62,144 nt of DNA from a candidate division WOR-3 bacterium (GTDB lineage Bacteria > Hydrothermota > Tepidihabitantia > SM23-42): NCBI GenBank assembly GCA_020343455.1, contig CP070795.1, positions 1,338,756 to 1,400,899 on the forward strand, written 5' to 3'. The notes under the pieces are model-generated. The model did not search any database. It saw only the letters and a list, made by a program, of their open reading frames with translations, and was not told the DNA's origin. A program made the position numbers and the translations under genes. This document shows, one piece after another, positions 3,798 to 57,977 of this stretch (position 1 is its first letter; every line of letters begins with the position of its first letter).

Positions 3798-4718
3798 ATG
3801 TTGGCTGAACGTATCGTATCCGGAGCATTACTGGTTTCTATTCTATTGCTACACTGTGGGGAAGAGACGCTCGAAGTTGCAATCATCTATCCCGACCATG
3901 GGTCCGTGGTGGACGGGATCATACGGGTCGAGACCGAAACGAGCGACAAGGTGAGATGTGTCATCTTCTACGCGGATGGTGTATGTATTGATTCTTGCCG
4001 GGCGGCGCCATTCCTGTGCTGTTGGAACACATTTGTCCACTCGGACAATTCCGTGCACCATCTCTATGCGATAGCCGAGGATTTCTATGGCAATGGGATC
4101 TGTTCCGATTCTGTTCAGGTTGTCGTGGATAACGGTGATATCGTTTTCGCGGATGATTTTGAGCCATACCCGCCCCATACCTACCCGGACGCTGCTTGGT
4201 TTGAGATATGGTTGGGAGCAGGAAGCGACCATACGTATGTCGATGAGGGTATTGCCAATAAGGGTTTGCAGAGCATTCGGTTACGAGGGCTGGCATCGTG
4301 GGTGAGGACCGACGGGGTGGAATTGAATGTTGATGGCCTTGAGGAACTATCGTATGAGCTCAGTGTCATGATCCCGTCGGCAGATCCAACCGGCGCGATG
4401 TTTGGTTTCTTCTGCATGGTTGGTGCGCAGGTGGGGACGATATATAACGGCGTCTGGTTGAGGAGCGATGATAATTCCGTTTATGCGCGCGGGATTCTCG
4501 AGAGTTACACGGGATGCACGTGGCGCAATGACACATGGCATAGGGTGAGGGTCGCACTGGATTATGATCAGCTCAGAATGAATGTCTGGTTTGACGACGA
4601 ACAGATCGTCTTTGACCTGCCTGCAGCTCCCCGCGAATGGACCGACACATTTGCGTTGGCCACCGAATACGGCACGGCCGGCGTCGTCTATTACGATGAT
4701 GTGAGCGTGTCCGAATAA
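3798..4718 (+). CDS. Secreted or membrane-anchored hypothetical protein with an Ig-like domain and a ConA/LamG-like jelly-roll domain
   Basis: The hydrophobic N-terminus is MLAERIVSGALLVSILLL. An Ig-like segment (IIYPDHGSVVDGIIRVE...VVVDNG) is followed by a beta-rich C-terminal half. The start was moved to 3798 because of the upstream promoter and an AGGAGA Shine-Dalgarno sequence. Confidence 0.5.
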   Translation: MLAERIVSGALLVSILLLHCGEETLEVAIIYPDHGSVVDGIIRVETETSDKVRCVIFYADGVCIDSCRAAPFLCCWNTFVHSDNSVHHLYAIAEDFYGNGICSDSVQVVVDNGDIVFADDFEPYPPHTYPDAAWFEIWLGAGSDHTYVDEGIANKGLQSIRLRGLASWVRTDGVELNVDGLEELSYELSVMIPSADPTGAMFGFFCMVGAQVGTIYNGVWLRSDDNSVYARGILESYTGCTWRNDTWHRVRVALDYDQLRMNVWFDDEQIVFDLPAAPREWTDTFALATEYGTAGVVYYDDVSVSE

Positions 4719-4897: not shown

Positions 4898-6301
4898 ATG
4901 AGCGGTGTGGTTGGTATCATTGCAGATAAGGACTGCAAGGAAGATCTGTTCTACGCTACAGATTATCATTCACACTTGGGGACGTGTTTTGGTGGTATTG
5001 CGATCTCGGACGACAGGTCGCTTGCCAAGAAGATCCATAGCATTGCTCGGGCACAGTTCAAGTCGCGTTTCGACGAAGATATAGCTTTCATCGGCATGCA
5101 CGGCAATTCGGGTGTGGGTGTGATCAGCGACCGTGATACGCAACCTTTGATAATGAGGCTGAAATTCGGTGAATACGCCCTCTGCGGGACGGGGTACATT
5201 GACAATCAGAACGAGTTAGCCAGAAAGTTGATTCAAGACGGTGTGGTATTTTCGGAGATGCCTGATGGCAAGGTCAATCAGATCGAACTGGCTGCAAAGC
5301 TTATCAATAGAGGTAAGACTCTCGTCGACGGTATCGAGTATTTACACGGTCAGATTGATGGTTCGTTATCGCTCTTGCTCTTAGGCAAAGACGGTCTTTA
5401 TGCGGCAAGGGACAGGTATGGGCGAACACCGTTGGTCTTGGCTGAGAAGGATGGTTCAAAAATCGTTGCAACGGAGACGTGTTCATATAAGAATCTGGGT
5501 TTCAAAACAAGCAGGTACCTTGGTCCCGGAGAAATCGTGTTGGTTGAATCGCATAAGATTCGACAGTTGAGAAAACCTGATGATAGCCTCAAGCTGTGCG
5601 CATTCCTCTTCGTATATGCCGGATTCCCGGCATCTGAGTATGAGGGCGAAAATGTCGAAGTTTTCCGTGAGAAGTCAGGTAGGATCATCGCTCAAAATGA
5701 TCATGTGAGTGTCGATCTGGTAGCCGGCATTGCCGACTCTGGGACGGCTTACGCGCACGGTTACTCCCATGAGTCGGGCGTACCCGTAAAGATCCCTCTT
5801 TTGAAGTATACGCCCGGCTGGGCGCGCAGCTATGTACCACCGACGCAAGAGCGACGTGACCTCATCGCTTTGATGAAACAGATAGCGGCCGACGCTTTGA
5901 TCAAAGACCAGAGAATGGTCATAACCGAGGATTCTATAGTACGGGGTACCCAGCTGAGGAATTTCTTACTGGTGAAACTATGGGATGCTGGCGCTAGGGA
6001 GGTCCATGTCCGTCCGGCGTGCCCGGCATTGATGTTTCCCTGCAAGTATCTTTACTCAACACGGCAACTTGATGAACTTTTCGCGCGGCGTATACTAAAG
6101 GAGTTCCACGGTAAGCACACGGAGAGCATCGACCCCTATCTCGATGTAGAGACAAAGGAATACAAGAAGATGATCAGGGCCATGGAAAAAGATCTAAACG
6201 TAACATCCTTGAGGTTCCAACGACTCGAGGATATGGTTGCCGCGACGAATCTGCCAGCCGGAAGTCTGTGTAAATATTGTTGGACCGGCAAGACCGGCTG
6301 A
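4898..6301 (+). CDS. Amidophosphoribosyltransferase (PurF)-like protein with Ser in place of the N-terminal nucleophile Cys
   Basis: Has class II glutamine amidotransferase plus PRTase architecture. The PRTase loop is VITEDSIVRGTQ. Four Cys align with the PurF 4Fe-4S ligands (LKLCAF, FPCKY, CKYCWTG). The N-terminus reads MSGVVGI rather than MCG. Confidence 0.7.
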   Translation: MSGVVGIIADKDCKEDLFYATDYHSHLGTCFGGIAISDDRSLAKKIHSIARAQFKSRFDEDIAFIGMHGNSGVGVISDRDTQPLIMRLKFGEYALCGTGYIDNQNELARKLIQDGVVFSEMPDGKVNQIELAAKLINRGKTLVDGIEYLHGQIDGSLSLLLLGKDGLYAARDRYGRTPLVLAEKDGSKIVATETCSYKNLGFKTSRYLGPGEIVLVESHKIRQLRKPDDSLKLCAFLFVYAGFPASEYEGENVEVFREKSGRIIAQNDHVSVDLVAGIADSGTAYAHGYSHESGVPVKIPLLKYTPGWARSYVPPTQERRDLIALMKQIAADALIKDQRMVITEDSIVRGTQLRNFLLVKLWDAGAREVHVRPACPALMFPCKYLYSTRQLDELFARRILKEFHGKHTESIDPYLDVETKEYKKMIRAMEKDLNVTSLRFQRLEDMVAATNLPAGSLCKYCWTGKTG

Positions 6302-6456: not shown

Positions 6457-7035
6457 ATGGGTAAGTCATTGAAAGGAAGTAAAACAGAGAAGAACCTGTT
6501 AGCGGCTTTTGCGGGCGAATCACAGGCCAGGAATAGATATACATACTTTGCTTCTAAGGCACGCAAAGAAGGCTATGAACAGATATCGGCAATATTCCTT
6601 GAGACGGCAGACAACGAAAAAGAACATGCCAAAGTCTTCTTCAAATATCTTGAGGGTGGCGAGGTTGAGATCACTGCCGGTTATCCGGCCGGAGTGATTG
6701 GGGACACCAAATCCAATCTCGAAGCCGCCGCAGATGGCGAGAAGATAGAATGGTCGACGTTGTATGCCAATTTCGGCAAGGTTGCTCAGGAAGAGGGTTT
6801 TCTTGAGGTCGCGCAGTCGTTTGAGCAGATCGCAAAGGTCGAGAAGTTCCACGAGTCGCGTTACCGGAAGTTGATCGACAACATTGCGAATAATGAGGTC
6901 TTCAAGAAGAAGAACACAGTGAAATGGCATTGCCGGAATTGCGGCTATGTGCATGAGGGAGCAGAACCTCCCAAGGAATGCCCGGCGTGTAAGCACCCCA
7001 TTTCTCATTACGAGGTTTTGGCCGAAAACTTCTGA
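6457..7035 (+). CDS. rbr: Rubrerythrin
   Basis: Ferritin-like diiron helices are present (EKNLLAAFAGESQARNRY, DNEKEHAKVF). The C-terminal rubredoxin-like domain reads CRNCGY...CPACKHP. AGGAGG Shine-Dalgarno sequence. Confidence 0.9.
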   Translation: MGKSLKGSKTEKNLLAAFAGESQARNRYTYFASKARKEGYEQISAIFLETADNEKEHAKVFFKYLEGGEVEITAGYPAGVIGDTKSNLEAAADGEKIEWSTLYANFGKVAQEEGFLEVAQSFEQIAKVEKFHESRYRKLIDNIANNEVFKKKNTVKWHCRNCGYVHEGAEPPKECPACKHPISHYEVLAENF

Positions 7036-7292
7036 TGGGCATAGCAGCGTTGGTTGCCTGTATTAGTCAGATGAGGGAGGTTGGTGTGAAATTGAATATG
7101 AGTATGTGGGACCGCTTAATCAGGATACTGATCACTGTGGTGATCGTAATATTGCTCATTGCCGATGTGTTGAAAGGAATGCTCGGAGTCGTCCTTGGTA
7201 TCATCGCGATCGTCTTTCTTGCGACGAGTGTGATCGGATTTTGCCCTCTTTACGTCATCTTCGGCTTCTCGACTAAGAAAAAGATACCGTAG
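7035..7292 (+). CDS. DUF2892 (YgaP-like) small membrane protein
   Basis: WDRLIRILI followed by two TM helices ending in GFCPLY is typical of DUF2892. The real start is probably internal (GTG 7086 or ATG 7098), after a GGGAGG sequence. Confidence 0.6.
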   Translation: MGIAALVACISQMREVGVKLNMSMWDRLIRILITVVIVILLIADVLKGMLGVVLGIIAIVFLATSVIGFCPLYVIFGFSTKKKIP

Positions 7293-7388
7293 CCTTACCG
7301 TCGTTCACATCCTGTCGACCGTGCCGGGGCTCAGCTACCGTTGAATAGGACAGGTCGCGCTAGTTTGCACACCCTATCGTGGAAATTA

Positions 7389-8840
7389 TCATTCTCTCAG
7401 CAGCATGACCTGCCGGTTCTCATTGCCTTTATCTGTGATGATGGTGCAAATGTAAACCCCTGAACTGAGTGCGTTACCCATGTCATCCCTGCCGTCCCAG
7501 ATGACTGATGCCTCTTGCGCTACCTCCGGTAGGTTGTCGGTCAGATCCCTTACCCTCCGTCCGACAATGTCATATACAATCAATCTGACAGTACGGTGGC
7601 CGCTGGGGACTTCGTATCTGATATTAGTACGTTGCCCGAAGGGATTGGGGTAGCTCTCGAGAAGGATTCGATCGTTGGGTGGCGGTAGGGTCTTGTCTTC
7701 TTCAATTTGCAACGGGACGTCAGGAAGTACCGTGCTTCCCGGACCGCCGTAAGCACCCATGTCGTTTCTCAATAAGCCAAGCGATGGCCACAGCGCGTAC
7801 CCTGGGTTGAGGGTGTCTTCAGGGTCATCATATGCGGCACTTGTGTCACCCGCATCGATGCAGGGAGAGTTCGTTGACAGGTACAGATTCTGTGCCTCAA
7901 ATAAGGGATCGGCGTCGATGTTTCCTTCGCCCGCATGACCGCCTTGTATGTCCGAGTAGGTAATTAAGACCACGCCACCCGTTTGGAGTATCTGGGCAAT
8001 TTCATTATCCCAGATGATATTGTTGCGAAGTGTAGCATTGGCGGCCCAAAATCGTATTCCTCCGCCAGTTGCGTACTGTCCGGGTGAATTGTACACGATG
8101 GTGTTGTTATTCAGAATCTTCGGATGGGTTCCATTTTCAAGAATCCACAGTCCACCACCACCGCCGTATGCATCGCCGGCAGAGTTGTGGGCGATTATGT
8201 TATTGCGAACATTAGCTCCCGTGTAATTCAAGACGATGCCTCCGCCGTAAAGTGCCGAATTGAAGACGATGATATTGTTGGCAATATCCGGGTCACCGTC
8301 ACCGCAGCGTATGGCACCTCCTCCCGTACTTATCACTCCTGTTTGGTCTGTTATGTGATTATCTCTTATGATGTTATGCCTTATTCTCGGCGAAAGATAC
8401 TGAATGAGTATGCCGCCGCCTTCACGATACAGTCCTGCCCCGTGTTCATCGAGCCATTTCGTTCCTGTCCCGCCCATGATGGTGAAACCAATGAGCGCGG
8501 CCGAAGTATCGGCGGTCGTATACGCGCTGTCGCTGACGATGAGAACGCAGCTTCCCGTATCAGGATCCAAAGGATTGCTGCCATCGATGATCGTCTGCTC
8601 GATGATCATTGGGTCGGGATCTAGTATGTAGTGGCTCGCGACGACGAGGCCCTTCTCGCGAAAATGTATGTTCTCTTGGTACGTACCGGCTGCAACGAGA
8701 ATGGTATCATTGCTGGCTGCTGCATTGATACCTGCTTGTATAGTGGGTTGTTCTCCTGGAACGTTTATGATTGTTCCGAACAGAGGTACAACGACTAGCA
8801 ATGCAATTACCGTGATCTTCCTAACGTAGGTAAACATCAT
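7389..8840 (-). CDS. Right-handed parallel beta-helix repeat protein with a T9SS C-terminal sorting domain
   Basis: Repeated NNII-x-x-N beta-helix turns are present (IRHNIIRDN, IANNIIVFN, VRNNIIAHN, LRNNIIWDN). There is a signal peptide, and the C-terminus is YPNPFGQRTNIRYEV...GVYICTI. The start was set at ATG 8840, which overlaps the upstream stop codon as ATGA and follows AGGAGG. Confidence 0.75.
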   Translation of the reverse strand: MMFTYVRKITVIALLVVVPLFGTIINVPGEQPTIQAGINAAASNDTILVAAGTYQENIHFREKGLVVASHYILDPDPMIIEQTIIDGSNPLDPDTGSCVLIVSDSAYTTADTSAALIGFTIMGGTGTKWLDEHGAGLYREGGGILIQYLSPRIRHNIIRDNHITDQTGVISTGGGAIRCGDGDPDIANNIIVFNSALYGGGIVLNYTGANVRNNIIAHNSAGDAYGGGGGLWILENGTHPKILNNNTIVYNSPGQYATGGGIRFWAANATLRNNIIWDNEIAQILQTGGVVLITYSDIQGGHAGEGNIDADPLFEAQNLYLSTNSPCIDAGDTSAAYDDPEDTLNPGYALWPSLGLLRNDMGAYGGPGSTVLPDVPLQIEEDKTLPPPNDRILLESYPNPFGQRTNIRYEVPSGHRTVRLIVYDIVGRRVRDLTDNLPEVAQEASVIWDGRDDMGNALSSGVYICTIITDKGNENRQVMLLRE

Positions 8841-9694
8841 TCCTCCTTGGTTGGTTTGGTCGTTACGTCCTTCCACGCAGGATTTTTCGCGAGCACTACG
8901 AGTGCTGCGTTGCGTGCGGATTTTTTGTTCAAAACCTGAGTTTTTTCAAGGAAAGTGGTCATCGTTTTGAGCACTGCGTCAAAAGATCTCAGGTTTCCTT
9001 GTTCATCGGTGCAGTACCTGCAATATCTGTTGGTGGTATCCTGATTGGCGAAGTCGGTTGCTCGATGCAGGATCATTGCACAGCTTTCACACAATACCTT
9101 TGCAGTTTCCTCTGCAGTTATGGGCGCAGCGTTATTTTGTGGTTTACCCATGAGGTTGATAAATTGTTCTGTGAAATCTTTCGAGATGTTGTTGTCTTCG
9201 AACATATAGTCGCCAAAAAAGGAAAGATACGTCATTACTCCTTGCCAGGCAGTAGTGCGCATCAAGCCTTTGTCTGCCCATCGATTGAACGACTCGACGA
9301 GATAGTAGTTTGCGACCGCCAGCAGGGCGATTACCTGTTGCTTCACATCCTCGCTGAAGCTGGAGAATCCGGATAACAATGCTCTGATTGTCCGCCAATT
9401 TAAACGGACCACATGAAAGTGTTCGATGAGAAACTTCTCGAGACTTTCTGATTGAACATATGCGGCGTGCAGTCTATCGGTAACGGTGAGGACAAGACGG
9501 CGGACGACCGACAGGATCAACTCGTCACGATTCTTGAAGTGAAAAAAGACCGTGCCGTGCGCAACGGATGCTTTCTCTGCAATATTCAGAGTGGAGGACC
9601 TGAAATCAGTCTCCAAGAGAACTCGTTCGGCCACGTCCAGAAGTCTGCTTCTGGTCACCTGCTTAACGTGTTTGCGCATCGGGTTCTTGTGCAT
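8837..9694 (-). CDS. TetR/AcrR-family regulator fused to a C-terminal putative zinc-ribbon domain
   Basis: The N-terminal TetR helix-turn-helix is LNIAEKASVAHGTVFFHFKNRDEL. The C-terminus carries CESCAM...x18...CRYCTDEQGNLRSF, which resembles the Zn_ribbon_2 type domain. Confidence 0.7.
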   Translation of the reverse strand: MHKNPMRKHVKQVTRSRLLDVAERVLLETDFRSSTLNIAEKASVAHGTVFFHFKNRDELILSVVRRLVLTVTDRLHAAYVQSESLEKFLIEHFHVVRLNWRTIRALLSGFSSFSEDVKQQVIALLAVANYYLVESFNRWADKGLMRTTAWQGVMTYLSFFGDYMFEDNNISKDFTEQFINLMGKPQNNAAPITAEETAKVLCESCAMILHRATDFANQDTTNRYCRYCTDEQGNLRSFDAVLKTMTTFLEKTQVLNKKSARNAALVVLAKNPAWKDVTTKPTKEE

Positions 9695-42569: not shown

Positions 42570-43946
42570 TTAGATTGTGACGGTGGTTAGGGTCTGTGGT
42601 ATGTCAGCGTCAACCCCGATTGTCTTGATTTTTTCTTGCAGGGCTTGCGATTCTTCGATCTCACCGTGCACGAGATATACCTTCTTAAGCTGGCCATTCC
42701 GCGTTGCTTCTACATACTGGAGGAGGTCACTGCCGTCGGCGTGGGCCGACAGACCTGCCATGAGATATGTCTTCGCGCGCATCTCAAAATCGTCGTTGAA
42801 GATCGTGACCTTGGACGCGCCTTCCAGTATCTTTCTGCCAAGTGTAGCATGGGCCTGAAAGCCGGTGAGGACGATCATGTTGCGTGCGTCACCAATGCTG
42901 TGGATTAGGTGGTGCGTTACCCTTCCTCCTTCACACATGCCGGATGCGGAAATTATGATCATTGGCCCGGCCTTATCGTTGAGGGATTTTGATTCCTCGG
43001 TATCGGCAACGTAATGTAAATTCGGGAAGTTGAAAGGGTCGCCTTCGTTGAAGATCTTTATCGTTTCGGCATCGAAACACTCGGGGTGTCTGCGGAAAAC
43101 GTCAGTGACATTTGAGGCGAGTGGACTATCGACATACACCGGCACGTTCTTCAAGCACCCTTCGTCAAAGAGGTTCTTTAGCATCGTCACCAGCAGTTGC
43201 GTGCGCTCGACGGCAAATGCAGGAATGATCATCTTGCTGCTCTTCTTTTTCGCCGTTTCGATGATTTCTTTCAGTTCTTCTTGCATGTTTTCGAAGGAGT
43301 GGTGTTGTCTTCCACCGTATGTCGATTCAAGGATCATGTAATCGATGTTCCTCACGACCACCGGATCTTTTATTATCGGCATTCCTTTGCGTCCAAGGTC
43401 GCCGGAGAACAATAGGCGCTTTCCATCGGCTTCGATGACTGTGACCGACGATCCAAGTATGTGCCCGGCATCGTGCAGTGTGATGTGCACTCCGGTGACG
43501 GGTTCGAAACTAGTGTTGTAGTCGACCGCTTGAAGCTGCTCGATGGTCTTCTCGGCATCGGCGATAGTGTAGAGGGGTTGTTTTGGTGGCATCCCCTTCT
43601 CCTTCCGTTTCTTATTGAGATATTCAAAATCGTATTCTTGAATCTTCGCCGAATCGAGAAGCAGTAGTGAGGCGATGTCCTTAGTCGCGCTCGTGCAGAA
43701 TATTGGTCCACTGAATCCGCGTTTCACGAGATTAGGAAGATTTCCCGAATGATCTATATGTGCGTGAGAGAGTATAACGGCCTTGATCTCCTTTGGCTTG
43801 AACGGAAACGTACTGTTGATGCGTTCGGCTTCCTCTCGGTGCCCCTGGAACATCCCGCAGTCGAGGAGGAATTTTTGTTTATTGTATTCGATTAGATGTA
43901 GTGAACCTGTTACAGTGCGCGCCGCGCCGATGAATGTTACATCCAC
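42570..43946 (-). CDS. MBL-fold beta-CASP family ribonuclease/hydrolase
   Basis: Motifs present are FIGAARTVTGS, the metallo-beta-lactamase HAHIDHSG, and beta-CASP segments. The start codon is GTG. Confidence 0.8.
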   Translation of the reverse strand: MDVTFIGAARTVTGSLHLIEYNKQKFLLDCGMFQGHREEAERINSTFPFKPKEIKAVILSHAHIDHSGNLPNLVKRGFSGPIFCTSATKDIASLLLLDSAKIQEYDFEYLNKKRKEKGMPPKQPLYTIADAEKTIEQLQAVDYNTSFEPVTGVHITLHDAGHILGSSVTVIEADGKRLLFSGDLGRKGMPIIKDPVVVRNIDYMILESTYGGRQHHSFENMQEELKEIIETAKKKSSKMIIPAFAVERTQLLVTMLKNLFDEGCLKNVPVYVDSPLASNVTDVFRRHPECFDAETIKIFNEGDPFNFPNLHYVADTEESKSLNDKAGPMIIISASGMCEGGRVTHHLIHSIGDARNMIVLTGFQAHATLGRKILEGASKVTIFNDDFEMRAKTYLMAGLSAHADGSDLLQYVEATRNGQLKKVYLVHGEIEESQALQEKIKTIGVDADIPQTLTTVTI

Positions 43947-43951
43947 ATAAG

Positions 43952-43979
43952 ATTGTACATGTTACACTGCTATCGTCAA
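43952..43979 (-). promoter_or_regulatory. sigma70-type promoter giving a predicted leaderless transcript for the beta-CASP gene
   Basis: On the minus strand, TTGACG (43979-43974), a 16-nt spacer and TACAAT (43957-43952). Five nt follow, then the GTG at 43946. The first base of the -35 box is the outermost base of the left inverted repeat. Confidence 0.55.
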
Positions 43980-44012
43980 GGGGGACGGTGCTTGACAATT
44001 TGACAATTTTCT
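43979..44012 (+). repeat. Left inverted repeat
   Basis: The sequence is aGGGGGACGGTGCTTGACAATTTGACAATTTTCt. It contains a tandem TTGACAAT-TTGACAAT. Confidence 0.9.
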
Positions 44013-44019
44013 CTACAAT
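43992..44019 (+). promoter_or_regulatory. sigma70-type promoter of the Y1 transposase-like gene, with its -35 box inside the left repeat
   Basis: TTGACA (43992-43997), a 16-nt spacer and TACAAT (44014-44019). Six nt follow, then the GTG at 44026. Confidence 0.55.
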
Positions 44020-44025
44020 GCAAAC

Positions 44026-44922
44026 GTGCGCAGAGCGCGTATCACATTTCCTGGAGCTTTTCATCATGTCATGAATCGCAGCATCCGCGGTGAGAAGATC
44101 TTCTTTGACAACAAGAGCAGGGCACATTTCATCGCGCTTCTCGAGGAGAAGATTGATTTGCTGAAGCAGAGGGTTCTTGCATATTGCCTGATGGACACGC
44201 ACTACCATCTCATACTTCAGAATACATCAGGCCGGCTCTCGGATTTCATGAGGGAGTTGAACGGACAGTTTGGCATGTACTTTCGCAAACGGGTCGGCGG
44301 TGCGGGTTATGTCTTTCAGTCTCGTTTCAAATCTACTCTGATCCAAGAAGATCGTTATCTGCAGATGGCGATAATCTATGTTCTTCTCAATCCTGTGCGC
44401 AAGGCTTGGGTCACATTGCCGTGGGAATACGAATGGTCGAGCATCGGTGAATATTTCAAAGGCGTTGATTCTCGTCTGGTGGACAACCGATTTGTCGAAG
44501 AGTTATACGAGACAAAGACCAACATGAAGGAACGTCTGGCTGAGTGGGTGAATATTGAGTTACCTGTGAGCGATACGAGATTGGGCGAGGTTGTTGGCGA
44601 TGGCGATTTTGTGGATTCTGCGGTGAAAAGATTCGATCCTCGGAAGGGAATGGATAAGTCGGATGAATCCGAAATGGATGATCGCAAATTCGAAGATGCG
44701 GCACGATTAATCAAGTGCTTCGAAGCCGAAAAAGGGCTGAAGATTGAGGAAATCGATACTGGAAATCACCTGGGGAAAGCCCTACGTGCCGAGCTGCTGG
44801 TGCTGCTCAAAGACAAAGCAGGCCTTACATATTCAGAGATTGTCACCTTCCCGCTGTTTGGTTCTTTAAAATATTCTTCCCTGGGAAAACTGTATAGACG
44901 TGCTAAGGATGGTTGCTATTGA
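44026..44922 (+). CDS. REP-associated tyrosine transposase (RayT)/IS200-like HUH protein with a C-terminal DnaA-domain-IV-like helix-turn-helix
   Basis: The N-terminus is FHHVMNRS. The HUH motif is DTHYHLIL and the Tyr motif is IIYVLLNPVRK. The C-terminal segment LRAELLVLLKDKAGLTYSEIVTFPLFGSLKYSSLGKLYRRA resembles DnaA domain IV. Confidence 0.7.
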   Translation: MRRARITFPGAFHHVMNRSIRGEKIFFDNKSRAHFIALLEEKIDLLKQRVLAYCLMDTHYHLILQNTSGRLSDFMRELNGQFGMYFRKRVGGAGYVFQSRFKSTLIQEDRYLQMAIIYVLLNPVRKAWVTLPWEYEWSSIGEYFKGVDSRLVDNRFVEELYETKTNMKERLAEWVNIELPVSDTRLGEVVGDGDFVDSAVKRFDPRKGMDKSDESEMDDRKFEDAARLIKCFEAEKGLKIEEIDTGNHLGKALRAELLVLLKDKAGLTYSEIVTFPLFGSLKYSSLGKLYRRAKDGCY

Positions 44923-44939
44923 TTTGGCGATCTAGTGGC

Positions 44940-44973
44940 AGAAAATTGTCAAATTGTCAAGCACCGTCCCCCT
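44940..44973 (-). repeat. Right inverted repeat
   Basis: It is the exact reverse complement of 43979-44012. It overlaps the anti-sigma stop codon by 2 nt. Confidence 0.9.
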
Positions 44974-45439
44974 ACTGGCCATAGCGCTGGTTGATTATCT
45001 TAATGAATTCTTCCTGTTGTTCCGGGGTAAGTTCGTATACTTCTTCATACTGACCCCCCGGACTTTGTGATGGGCGTTCCTGAGCGGTCACCTGCGGCTT
45101 GGGCCGGATAAAGAGGAAGTAACCGATGCCGAATGCGACGACCGCCGAAGCGACGACCGGTAGAACGATGCGGAACGGGAATTTCCTCTCGAACTTCTCG
45201 TGGACGATCTTCTCATGCACCGAAAAGACGAATTCCTCCCAATATGTCTCTTGAAACTGGCACGCGCAGTTTTCGGTTTCGGTGGGGGTGCATAGTTGAA
45301 GGCACTGATCGACTAACTTGTATTCGTCGCGGCATGCGGGGCAATCGCGAATGTGTTCGCGAACGGCCGCCCGGTCATCGGGTGAGATTTCTTCGCAGAG
45401 CAAATAGATTATGTTTTCCTGAACATCTATGCATTTCAT
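44972..45439 (-). CDS. Anti-sigma factor (zf-HC2) with one TM helix
   Basis: The zf-HC2 motif is H-x3-C-x2-C (REHIRDCPACRDE). A central TM helix is present. The start overlaps the sigma-factor stop codon as ATGA. Confidence 0.7.
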   Translation of the reverse strand: MKCIDVQENIIYLLCEEISPDDRAAVREHIRDCPACRDEYKLVDQCLQLCTPTETENCACQFQETYWEEFVFSVHEKIVHEKFERKFPFRIVLPVVASAVVAFGIGYFLFIRPKPQVTAQERPSQSPGGQYEEVYELTPEQQEEFIKIINQRYGQ

Positions 45440-57806: not shown

Positions 57807-57843
57807 GTTTCCTCCGGTGCCCCCAACTGCAAAACAGTATTAT

Positions 57844-57932
57844 GGAGAGGTGTCCGAGCGGCCCAAGGAGCACGACTGGAAATCGTGTATCCGCCGAGAG
57901 GCGGATCGCGGGTTCAAATCCCGCCCTCTCCG
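57844..57932 (+). tRNA. tRNA-Ser (anticodon GGA)
   Basis: The acceptor stem pairs GGAGAGG with CCTCTCC. The anticodon stem pairs CACGA with TCGTG around the loop CTGGAAA. A long variable arm (CCGCC...GGCGG) and the T-arm GCGGGTTCAAATCCCGC are present. CCA is not encoded. Confidence 0.9.
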
Positions 57933-57977
57933 GAGTGAGATATACGGAAATCTTTAACGATAGGAGAAAGGAGAGCT

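Follow-up and report, generated by a model that had tools for sequence, protein, structure and literature searches.

A 62,144-nt stretch of genomic DNA from a candidate division WOR-3 bacterium (hereafter the window) contains, at positions 43979-44973, a single gene enclosed by a perfect inverted repeat, and we consider it very probable that this unit is a TIRtron, made up of one TIRYT gene, encoding a RAYT-like Y1/HUH single-stranded DNA (ssDNA) nuclease with a C-terminal helix-turn-helix, and two terminal inverted repeats (TIRs) that serve it as cis sites. In the parts of Di Nocera, De Gregorio & Rocco 2013 (PMC3733652) drawn on here, TIRtron is the name for RAYT-like genes bordered by long TIRs instead of REPs, and their protein is the TIRYT, or TIR-associated tyrosine transposase. 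Among RAYT-like genes, TIRYTs account for a large proportion. What is new in the present case is the occurrence of filled and empty sites, repeats that are constrained and change in concert, a promoter built into the element end, and gene-less doublets of the repeat. The element locus in the window is called WIN below, and the loci and contigs compared with it are labelled L001-L108. The parts of the element are as follows.

43979..44012, + strand: left TIR, 34/34 complementary to the right arm
From 43981, + strand: core end of the left TIR, GGGGACGG
43981..43988, + strand: terminal motif GGGGACGG, the presumed cleavage or recognition end; this outer arm end is conserved in the close clade
43992..44007, + strand: tandem TTGACAAT-TTGACAAT within the TIR, a candidate double site for the C-terminal helix-turn-helix
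44026..44922, + strand: TIRYT gene, 298 aa, GTG start, the sole open reading frame (ORF) between the arms; Y1 core at residues 1-140, middle module at 140-205 and putative four-helix helix-turn-helix at 222-298 (44689-44919)
44200-44208, + strand: HUH motif, H59-Y-H61, in HYHLIL
44377-44379, + strand: catalytic Tyr118, in YVLLNPVRK
44940..44973, - strand: right TIR, sharing 2 nt with the stop codon of the anti-sigma ORF (44972-44974)

The two arms are separated by 927 nt and lie close to the gene, 13 nt before its start codon on the left and 17 nt after its stop codon on the right, giving a unit of 0.99 kb that consists of one gene and two TIRs. A first-pass annotation, made from the sequence of the window, had described a perfect 34-bp inverted repeat around a single gene, and this is borne out to the base (34/34 complementary, one 298-aa ORF between the arms), while the outermost A (43979) and G (43980) of the left TIR may be chance extensions into the flank. 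TTGACAATTTGACAAT is present within each arm, and the inner 15-mer TTGACAATTTGACAA occurs in the 62-kb window only in the two arms. At its outer end the WIN repeat agrees with the published motif GGGGWSAS at 7/8 positions, G replacing A at position 7; this motif is described as shared by many members of the TIRtron class, not all, and some TIRs of the class as also being single, dimeric or grouped (PMC3733652, in part).

The Y1 part of the encoded protein is readily recognised. It matches the Pfam profile PF01797 Y1_Tnp over residues 14-118 with 29.8 bits, above the gathering cut-off of 23, and the same profile is matched by 30/30 homologs, in whose alignment H59, H61, Y118 and N122 are invariant together with a Y-x-W-S-S stretch that aligns with the WPFS of TnpA_REP. 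An AlphaFold2 model based on the 30 homologs (predicted local distance difference test score, pLDDT, of 86) finds its best Protein Data Bank (PDB) match by Foldseek in 4er8_A (E 1.5e-6, template-modelling (TM) score 0.67, target-normalised), which shows E. coli TnpA_REP in complex with a REP hairpin and is the closest solved structure, followed by the TnpA proteins of ISDra2 and IS608. Both the profile and the fold search thus agree with the Y1 fold proposed in the first-pass annotation, whose HUH (HYHLIL) and Tyr (YVLLNPVRK) motifs are intact where they were read. Beyond the Y1 core, the model places a helix and beta-hairpin in the middle module, and the homolog alignment contains a conserved C-terminal part of ~160 aa; when residues 140-298 were modelled separately, pLDDT was ~90 over the last 75 residues. 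A phmmer search with these residues against 1.84 billion representative proteins gave 180 relatives, and among the matches listed all were either ~300-aa proteins with the module at the same position or short TIRYT-like fragments, so that the C-terminal module appears only fused to a Y1 domain. A match of residues 140-236 (44443-44733) to Pfam AbiH (E 0.0038, 17.8 bits, cut-off 30.9) is weak and probably spurious.

Two better-known Y1 systems have to be weighed at this point. Were the unit a canonical REPtron, in which a RAYT stands between REP hairpins that it spreads as REPINs, one would expect the E. coli TnpA_REP as best fold match, REP_Tyr_transpos as best NCBIfam match and REPIN-like doublets in relatives, all of which are seen. 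Yet single WIN arms are free of any local hairpin (folding z 0.07 and 0.94), neither a GTAG nor a CGTC tag is found at the WIN repeats, the NCBIfam score of 56.9 falls short of the cut-off of 80, the 62 kb hold no abundant repeat family, and the protein is ~140 aa longer than RAYTs because of its added C-terminal module, which makes this reading very unlikely. It is extremely unlikely that we are dealing with a standard insertion sequence of the IS200/IS605 family whose TIRs are incidental. The ends of such elements should be subterminal hairpins on one strand, of which there are none at the WIN element, where long TIRs stand instead; the single copy and long vertical persistence, the RAYT-type motifs with TnpA_REP as closest fold, and the extra putative helix-turn-helix module absent from TnpA_IS200 likewise speak against it, as opposed to the Y1_Tnp domain, the fold matches to ISDra2 and IS608 TnpA, the lack of a target duplication and the seamless empty sites, with which it would be compatible.

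The TIRtron assignment gains from the recurrence of the same repeat design across the protein family. A word-indexed search returned 639 protein relatives, mostly of ~300 aa, from WOR-3, TA06, Stahlbacteria and similar lineages, and a scan of GTDB species genomes yielded 80 loci from many phyla. Flanking inverted repeats were detected around the gene by a scripted search in ~60/76 complete related loci, and these begin with GGGGACGG or GGGGTCAGG. In the close clade (34-58% identity) the arms begin GGGGACGG(T/A)G, while in the distant clade (27-45% identity over the best-aligned segment), comprising Proteobacteria, Omnitrophota, Nitrospirota and others, the outer arm end is GGGGTCAGG and the arms carry canonical GGGGTCAGGTCT; full-length homologs at 28-32% identity have canonical GGGGTCAG flanks. 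The arm interiors contain lineage-specific short direct repeats with a period of 7-8 nt, such as TTGACAAT-TTGACAAT, ATGCAAAT-ATGCAA, TTGTAAAT-ATGTAA, CTTGCCTT-TTGCC and ACACATTT-CACA, and the lag-8 self-match over 35 family arms is 0.44, compared with 0.31 +/- 0.024 in shuffles. Judged by sequence, these 7-8-nt direct repeats are obvious candidates for what the helix-turn-helix would bind. At the family insertion sites we found no conserved target motif, at most a weak A/T preference before the G-run. Unrelated loci host the family in other lineages (L086, for instance), and in other phyla the surroundings (~4 kb) of 45 family loci contain 27 further TIR copies, mostly in the GGGGTCAGG clade.

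Several further observations concern the distribution of these repeats. L030, L054 (with a doublet at 169-239) and L079 are among the loci with extra TIR copies, suggesting local clustering of dispersed TIRs. Partial copies of the terminal motif (GGGGAC... or GGGGTCA...) occur 10-115 nt beyond the true arms in many family loci (L002 at 5891-5904; L007 at 3840-3859 and 3889-3908; L010 at both arms; and the flanks of L021, L028, L041, L074 and L083) and may represent traces left by past events, or else a second binding site. No close relative was found on plasmids, which gave only distant Y1-only matches of ~29-35% identity; one of them, the 24-kb Pseudomonas aeruginosa plasmid NZ_CP116719.1, has three Y1-part matches of ~29% identity and so represents a multi-copy distant relative. 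Many homologs from the word search sit on contigs of 970-1006 bp, and the Logan contig L108 (1-979, 979 bp) consists of one TIRtron, its first base being the outer end of a left arm and its last lying inside the right arm. Contig ends of this kind explain the many homologs on ~1-kb contigs, and k-mer assemblers would probably break at the TIRs.

Relatives located via the beta-CASP protein, whose junctions with the anti-sigma gene were then read, include sites with and without the element, which suggests that gain or loss of the complete unit is still possible. The junction is filled at WIN and in L001, L002, L084, L085, L092 and L098, with uniform orientation (7/7), and empty in L100 (complete genome CP070802.1), L101/102, L103/104, L105 and the outgroup L106. 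At filled sites one end of the element abuts the anti-sigma stop codon or comes within ~12 nt of it, and the other end is equally close to the -35 box of beta-CASP. At empty sites the anti-sigma stop codon is followed by 6-258 nt of unrelated spacer and then by the beta-CASP promoter TTGACx-16-TATAAT; stop codon and -35 box are intact, and neither a TIR remnant nor a target duplication was found in any of the five lineages. The first-pass annotation had placed the unit exactly between the two host genes, with the right repeat overlapping the anti-sigma stop codon by 2 nt (44972-44974), the beta-CASP -35 box touching the left repeat (the TTGACG promoter overlaps the left arm by 1 nt) and no target-site duplication in view, and all of this is confirmed, the last point by comparison with the empty sites. 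It had also recommended that an empty site be sought at this junction, which is what we found, with boundaries at the repeat ends; the same arrangement in all relatives, named beforehand as the sign of a fixed regulatory palindrome, is not what the five lineages with clean empty sites present. The 258-nt spacer of L105 was considered as a decayed element and rejected, since outside the flanks it does not resemble the L085 element. This spacer (L105 2743-3000) is A-rich, and a 65-nt stretch 75% similar to L101/L102 858-922 may be another small repeat.

To place these sites we used a neighbour-joining host tree for which five proteins encoded nearby were joined into one alignment of 1469 columns (300 bootstraps). 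Filled L085 groups with empty L105, empty L103 with filled WIN, L001 and L098, and L100 with L101, both empty, each at 100% bootstrap, and for such interleaving the element must have been gained or lost here three more times or more often. The two types of TIRYT (WIN/L001/L098/L002 and L084/L085) track the deep split among the hosts, which together with the constant orientation favours a single ancient insertion that was afterwards lost precisely on several occasions; re-insertion may also have occurred. Whether by loss, re-insertion or exchange, the moving unit is bounded by the repeat ends. The uniform orientation in 7/7 filled loci also bears on the idea of an invertible DNA switch, with the TIRs as recombination sites and flipping that alters expression of the neighbours. 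Perfect inverted repeats around a promoter-bearing segment would be suited to such a device, to which we give practically no credence, as there is no invertase, the sole protein being an HUH nuclease, and no outward or antisense promoter could be driven from the right arm, neither WIN nor the family arm sequences having a -10 box at the right distance.

The gene and its repeats are both under constraint. At orthologous sites the gene order is beta-CASP, element, anti-sigma and sigma genes, in one orientation in six other assemblies, and TIRYT protein identity to WIN is 96% in L001, 77-78% in L098 and L002, and 62-64% in L084, L085 and L092. The nuclease gene is under purifying selection, with a ratio of nonsynonymous to synonymous divergence (dN/dS) of 0.11-0.19, and the repeats are under stronger constraint than its synonymous sites: the 29-nt TIR core GGGGACGGTGCTTGACAATTTGACAATTT is identical in both arms of WIN, L001, L002 and L098, at a synonymous divergence among WIN, L098 and L002 of dS 0.8-1.25, a level at which synonymous sites are saturated. 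In L084 and L085 a 1-nt deletion (GACAATTT to GACATTT) is present in both arms. Identity of the core despite such divergence, and an indel shared by both arms, indicate that the arms are functional and change in concert.

The left repeat contains part of a predicted promoter.

43992..44019, + strand: predicted sigma-70-type promoter of the nuclease gene, TTGACA-16-TACAAT, 11/12 consensus matches

In the consensus scan the -35 box TTGACA (43992-43997) lies within the left TIR and the -10 box TACAAT (44014-44019) just beyond it, with the GTG start 6 nt past the -10 box, so the nuclease mRNA would apparently be leaderless. That the first TTGACA of the left repeat acts as the -35 box for the gene itself, as previously annotated, is thus well matched by the predicted promoter and by a layout kept in most close relatives, in which the left arm provides a -35-like hexamer and a -10-like hexamer follows just inside. 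A TIR -35 box, a -10 box and then 5-6 nt to the start were read in L001, L002, L084-L086, L004, L007-L011 and L015, while L012 and L013 have a Shine-Dalgarno sequence in place of the leaderless layout. At the level of sequence, the promoter-in-repeat and leaderless layout is conserved. Since the left repeat holds the gene's -35 box, bound TIRYT might repress its own promoter.

These features could also belong to a fixed, domesticated regulator, a DNA-binding protein or nuclease with a host function whose repeats are looping, autoregulating operators (perhaps for beta-CASP as well) and whose unit is immobile. Such a regulator would explain the single copy in the window, the same locus and orientation in seven filled loci down to 63% protein identity, the strong purifying selection on gene and repeats, and the -35 box inside the left repeat. 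It would not explain clean empty sites that interleave with filled ones on a well-supported host tree, nor the invariance of the HUH and Tyr residues, needless for a pure binding protein, and the occurrence of the family at unrelated loci elsewhere (L086) and of extra TIR copies around its members in other phyla are also at odds with it. We therefore judge a domesticated regulator to be unlikely, and gene-less doublets that are copies of one another add to this judgement.

These doublets came to light in an exact 25-mer scan of Joint Genome Institute (JGI) metagenome contigs, which returned eight contigs: three with gene-bearing units (L092, L095 and, at a contig end, L094), two with solo arms (L091 and L093) and three with gene-less inverted doublets of 97-137 bp.

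L090 7769-7865 and 9406-9502: two gene-less inverted doublets, 97 bp each
L096 4045-4180: gene-less inverted doublet
L097 622-758: gene-less inverted doublet

The two L090 doublets are homologous in their interior and asymmetric in the same way (one arm has AATCTGACA, the other AATTTGACA), which identifies them as copies of one unit, as REPINs are. As ssDNA the doublets form long hairpins (z about -9), while a single arm is unstructured (z about 0). Each of the three metagenomes with doublets or solo arms also holds a gene-bearing unit with the same repeat. Uniqueness of the repeat to its locus, which the first-pass annotation had held to count against mobility, is thus not observed in the lineage, where metagenome contigs contain doublets and solo arms; the 62-kb window itself has two arms only. 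Among the contigs of this search only L094 is syntenic with the window, and an empty site for a doublet was not found in them. Both L090 doublets are located between convergent ORFs (6791-7783 (+)/7851-8669 (-) and 8783-9451 (+)/9488-10351 (-)), whose frames enter the arms and stop there (e.g. at the TGA of TTGACA), similar to the situation at WIN, where the anti-sigma ORF has its stop codon partly within the right arm. Near the gene-bearing unit of L092, at 1488-1706, there is a tandem direct repeat of ~116 nt with 94% identity.

A number of results weigh against the interpretation of WIN as a TIRtron with functional cis sites. Within the 62-kb window the TIR is represented by its two arms only: the TIR 32-mer has no match elsewhere in the window with up to 3 mismatches allowed (0 expected from shuffles), there are no paralogs or other element copies, and the heptamer GGGACGG is at chance frequency. 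The doublet contigs are tied to gene-bearing units at the level of the metagenome, by co-occurrence in the same three samples. The TIRYT and host trees are partly incongruent, L098 and L002 being 82% identical and WIN and L098 77% even though the latter are host sisters, and the filled and empty pattern could in part be due to relatives exchanging alleles through homologous recombination in place of excision. The only NCBIfam match of the protein, NF047646 REP_Tyr_transpos, scores 56.9 bits and is under its cut-off of 80. As for the C-terminus, neither Bac_DnaA_C nor any other HTH Pfam model was matched at E<=10 in 30 family members, and there was no PDB sequence match for this part, alone or as a profile. 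The best fold match of its model is the DNA-binding domain of M. tuberculosis DnaA, 3pvp_A, at the weak E value of 0.17 (TM 0.58 target-normalised, root-mean-square deviation (rmsd) 2.2 A over 72 columns), with other DnaA structures next. The earlier proposal of a fused helix-turn-helix like DnaA domain IV accordingly loses its profile, Bac_DnaA_C, and keeps a weak resemblance in predicted fold; we regard it as plausible but weak. Finally, a literature search by both names and related terms found no functional study of TIRYTs or TIRtrons, only two descriptive papers.

For a TIRtron of this kind we can propose how the parts might work together. The TIRYT, probably dimeric like other Y1 enzymes, would read the TIRs through its helix-turn-helix, at the inner tandem 8-mers, and through its HUH domain, at the GGGGAC end, the likely substrate being a stem formed by both arms paired in ssDNA. 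Such pairing would explain the strict identity of the arms, the concerted indel and the hairpin-forming doublets. Tyr118 would then cut and rejoin single strands at the repeat ends via a 5'-phosphotyrosine intermediate, allowing seamless excision and insertion of anything between two inverted repeats, be it a gene-bearing unit or a doublet. Mobilisation of this type parallels the peel-and-paste of IS200/IS605 and the relationship between RAYTs and REPINs. Doublets would probably move more often than the gene-bearing unit, for which mobility would be rare, and in the WOR-3 lineage the element would seem for the most part to stay in single copy and pass on vertically, seldom being lost or gained.

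A bolder version, which we offer tentatively and think possible at best, is that TIRtrons are active 'panhandle' transposons with a distinct mode of Y1 transposition, in which the paired-TIR stem is read by the helix-turn-helix, the HUH domain cuts both junctions at the GGGG base, the unit or doublet is excised seamlessly and reinserted in one orientation next to a -35-like TTGAC, and a long single-copy residence follows with autoregulation via the end promoter. The WOR-3 lineage provides a natural test bed in its exact-ended 0.99-kb unit, sister genomes with filled and empty sites, matching doublets and constrained repeats, and the mobility and cis sites of TIRtrons become directly testable questions.

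The host genes on either side contribute the two boundaries of the insertion site.

43952..43979, - strand: predicted beta-CASP promoter in the host flank, TTGACG-16-TACAAT, ending 5 nt short of the start codon (GTG at 43946)
44972-45439, - strand: putative anti-sigma ORF, stop codon 44972-44974

A near-consensus beta-CASP promoter (TTGACx-16-TAnAAT) with the start codon 5 nt on was present in every relative examined, filled or empty, and the apparently leaderless arrangement is therefore also a habit of the lineage. The putative anti-sigma ORF contains a 15-nt tandem repeat (45128-45159, 2.1 copies, consensus GCCGAATGCGACGACC), and by Rfam and ARAGORN the sole RNA gene in the window is a tRNA-Ser(GGA) at 57843-57933.

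The WIN unit can also be compared with known systems. With DnaA domain IV (3pvp, 2hcb, 8btg) the likeness is one of predicted structure, the four-helix module superposing with an rmsd of 2.2 A over 72-75 columns, whereas there is no significant sequence similarity, the TIR repeat TTGACAAT is not a DnaA box and the module is found only fused to Y1. IS200/IS605 elements such as IS608 and ISDra2 share the HUH/Y1 chemistry, the lack of target duplication, the seamless empty site and the compact one-gene organisation. They have asymmetric hairpins, subterminal and on a single strand, and a target of four or five nucleotides, in contrast to WIN, which ends in long inverted repeats, forms no hairpin within an arm and has no clear target motif. 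The REPtron or RAYT-REPIN system (E. coli TnpA_REP, 4er8, and the Pseudomonas RAYTs) has in common with WIN a single-copy, vertically inherited Y1 nuclease between inverted cognate repeats and hairpin-forming inverted doublets that lack a gene and are copied whole, and it provides the closest solved structure. It differs in that the WIN repeat is not itself a palindrome, has no GTAG tag and appears low in copy number, in that the WIN protein has two extra C-terminal modules, and in that the gene-bearing unit itself appears to be gained and lost.

The nearest described relatives are those already grouped with TIRYTs. Most TIRYTs fall in TnpA_REP subclass 2.1, whose members have a C-terminal Bac_DnaA_C-, HTH_23- or HTH_28-like domain and no REPs and are present in 14.9% of strains, and the GGGG motif is unlike a DnaA box (Quentin 2018, PMC6006769). 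WIN resembles this subclass (2.1.2), which the authors equate with TIRYTs, in its long Y1 protein, conserved C-terminal module (a putative helix-turn-helix) and absence of REPs nearby, and differs in that the C-terminus of its clade reaches no Pfam HTH model, its likeness to DnaA domain IV being one of predicted fold only. A promoter in the TIR, the 7-8-nt inner periodicity and filled/empty polymorphism were not found in the term-searched text of PMC3733652. With the TIRtrons as described in the consulted parts of that paper, WIN shares a RAYT-like Y1 gene flanked closely by long TIRs with a G-rich terminal motif, TIRs that are sometimes solo, dimeric or clustered, and mostly one gene copy per genome; the differences are the end GGGGACGG, at 7/8 of GGGGWSAS, and the host, WOR-3 lying outside the sampling of PMC3733652. 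The original view of the unit as a REPtron-like, RayT/IS200-like HUH gene with long TIRs is thus supported in the form of a match to the published TIRtron/TIRYT class (PMC3733652, in part; PMC6006769). The WIN unit is no new kind of system and belongs to this known class, as the GGGGACGG variant of the WOR-3 lineage.

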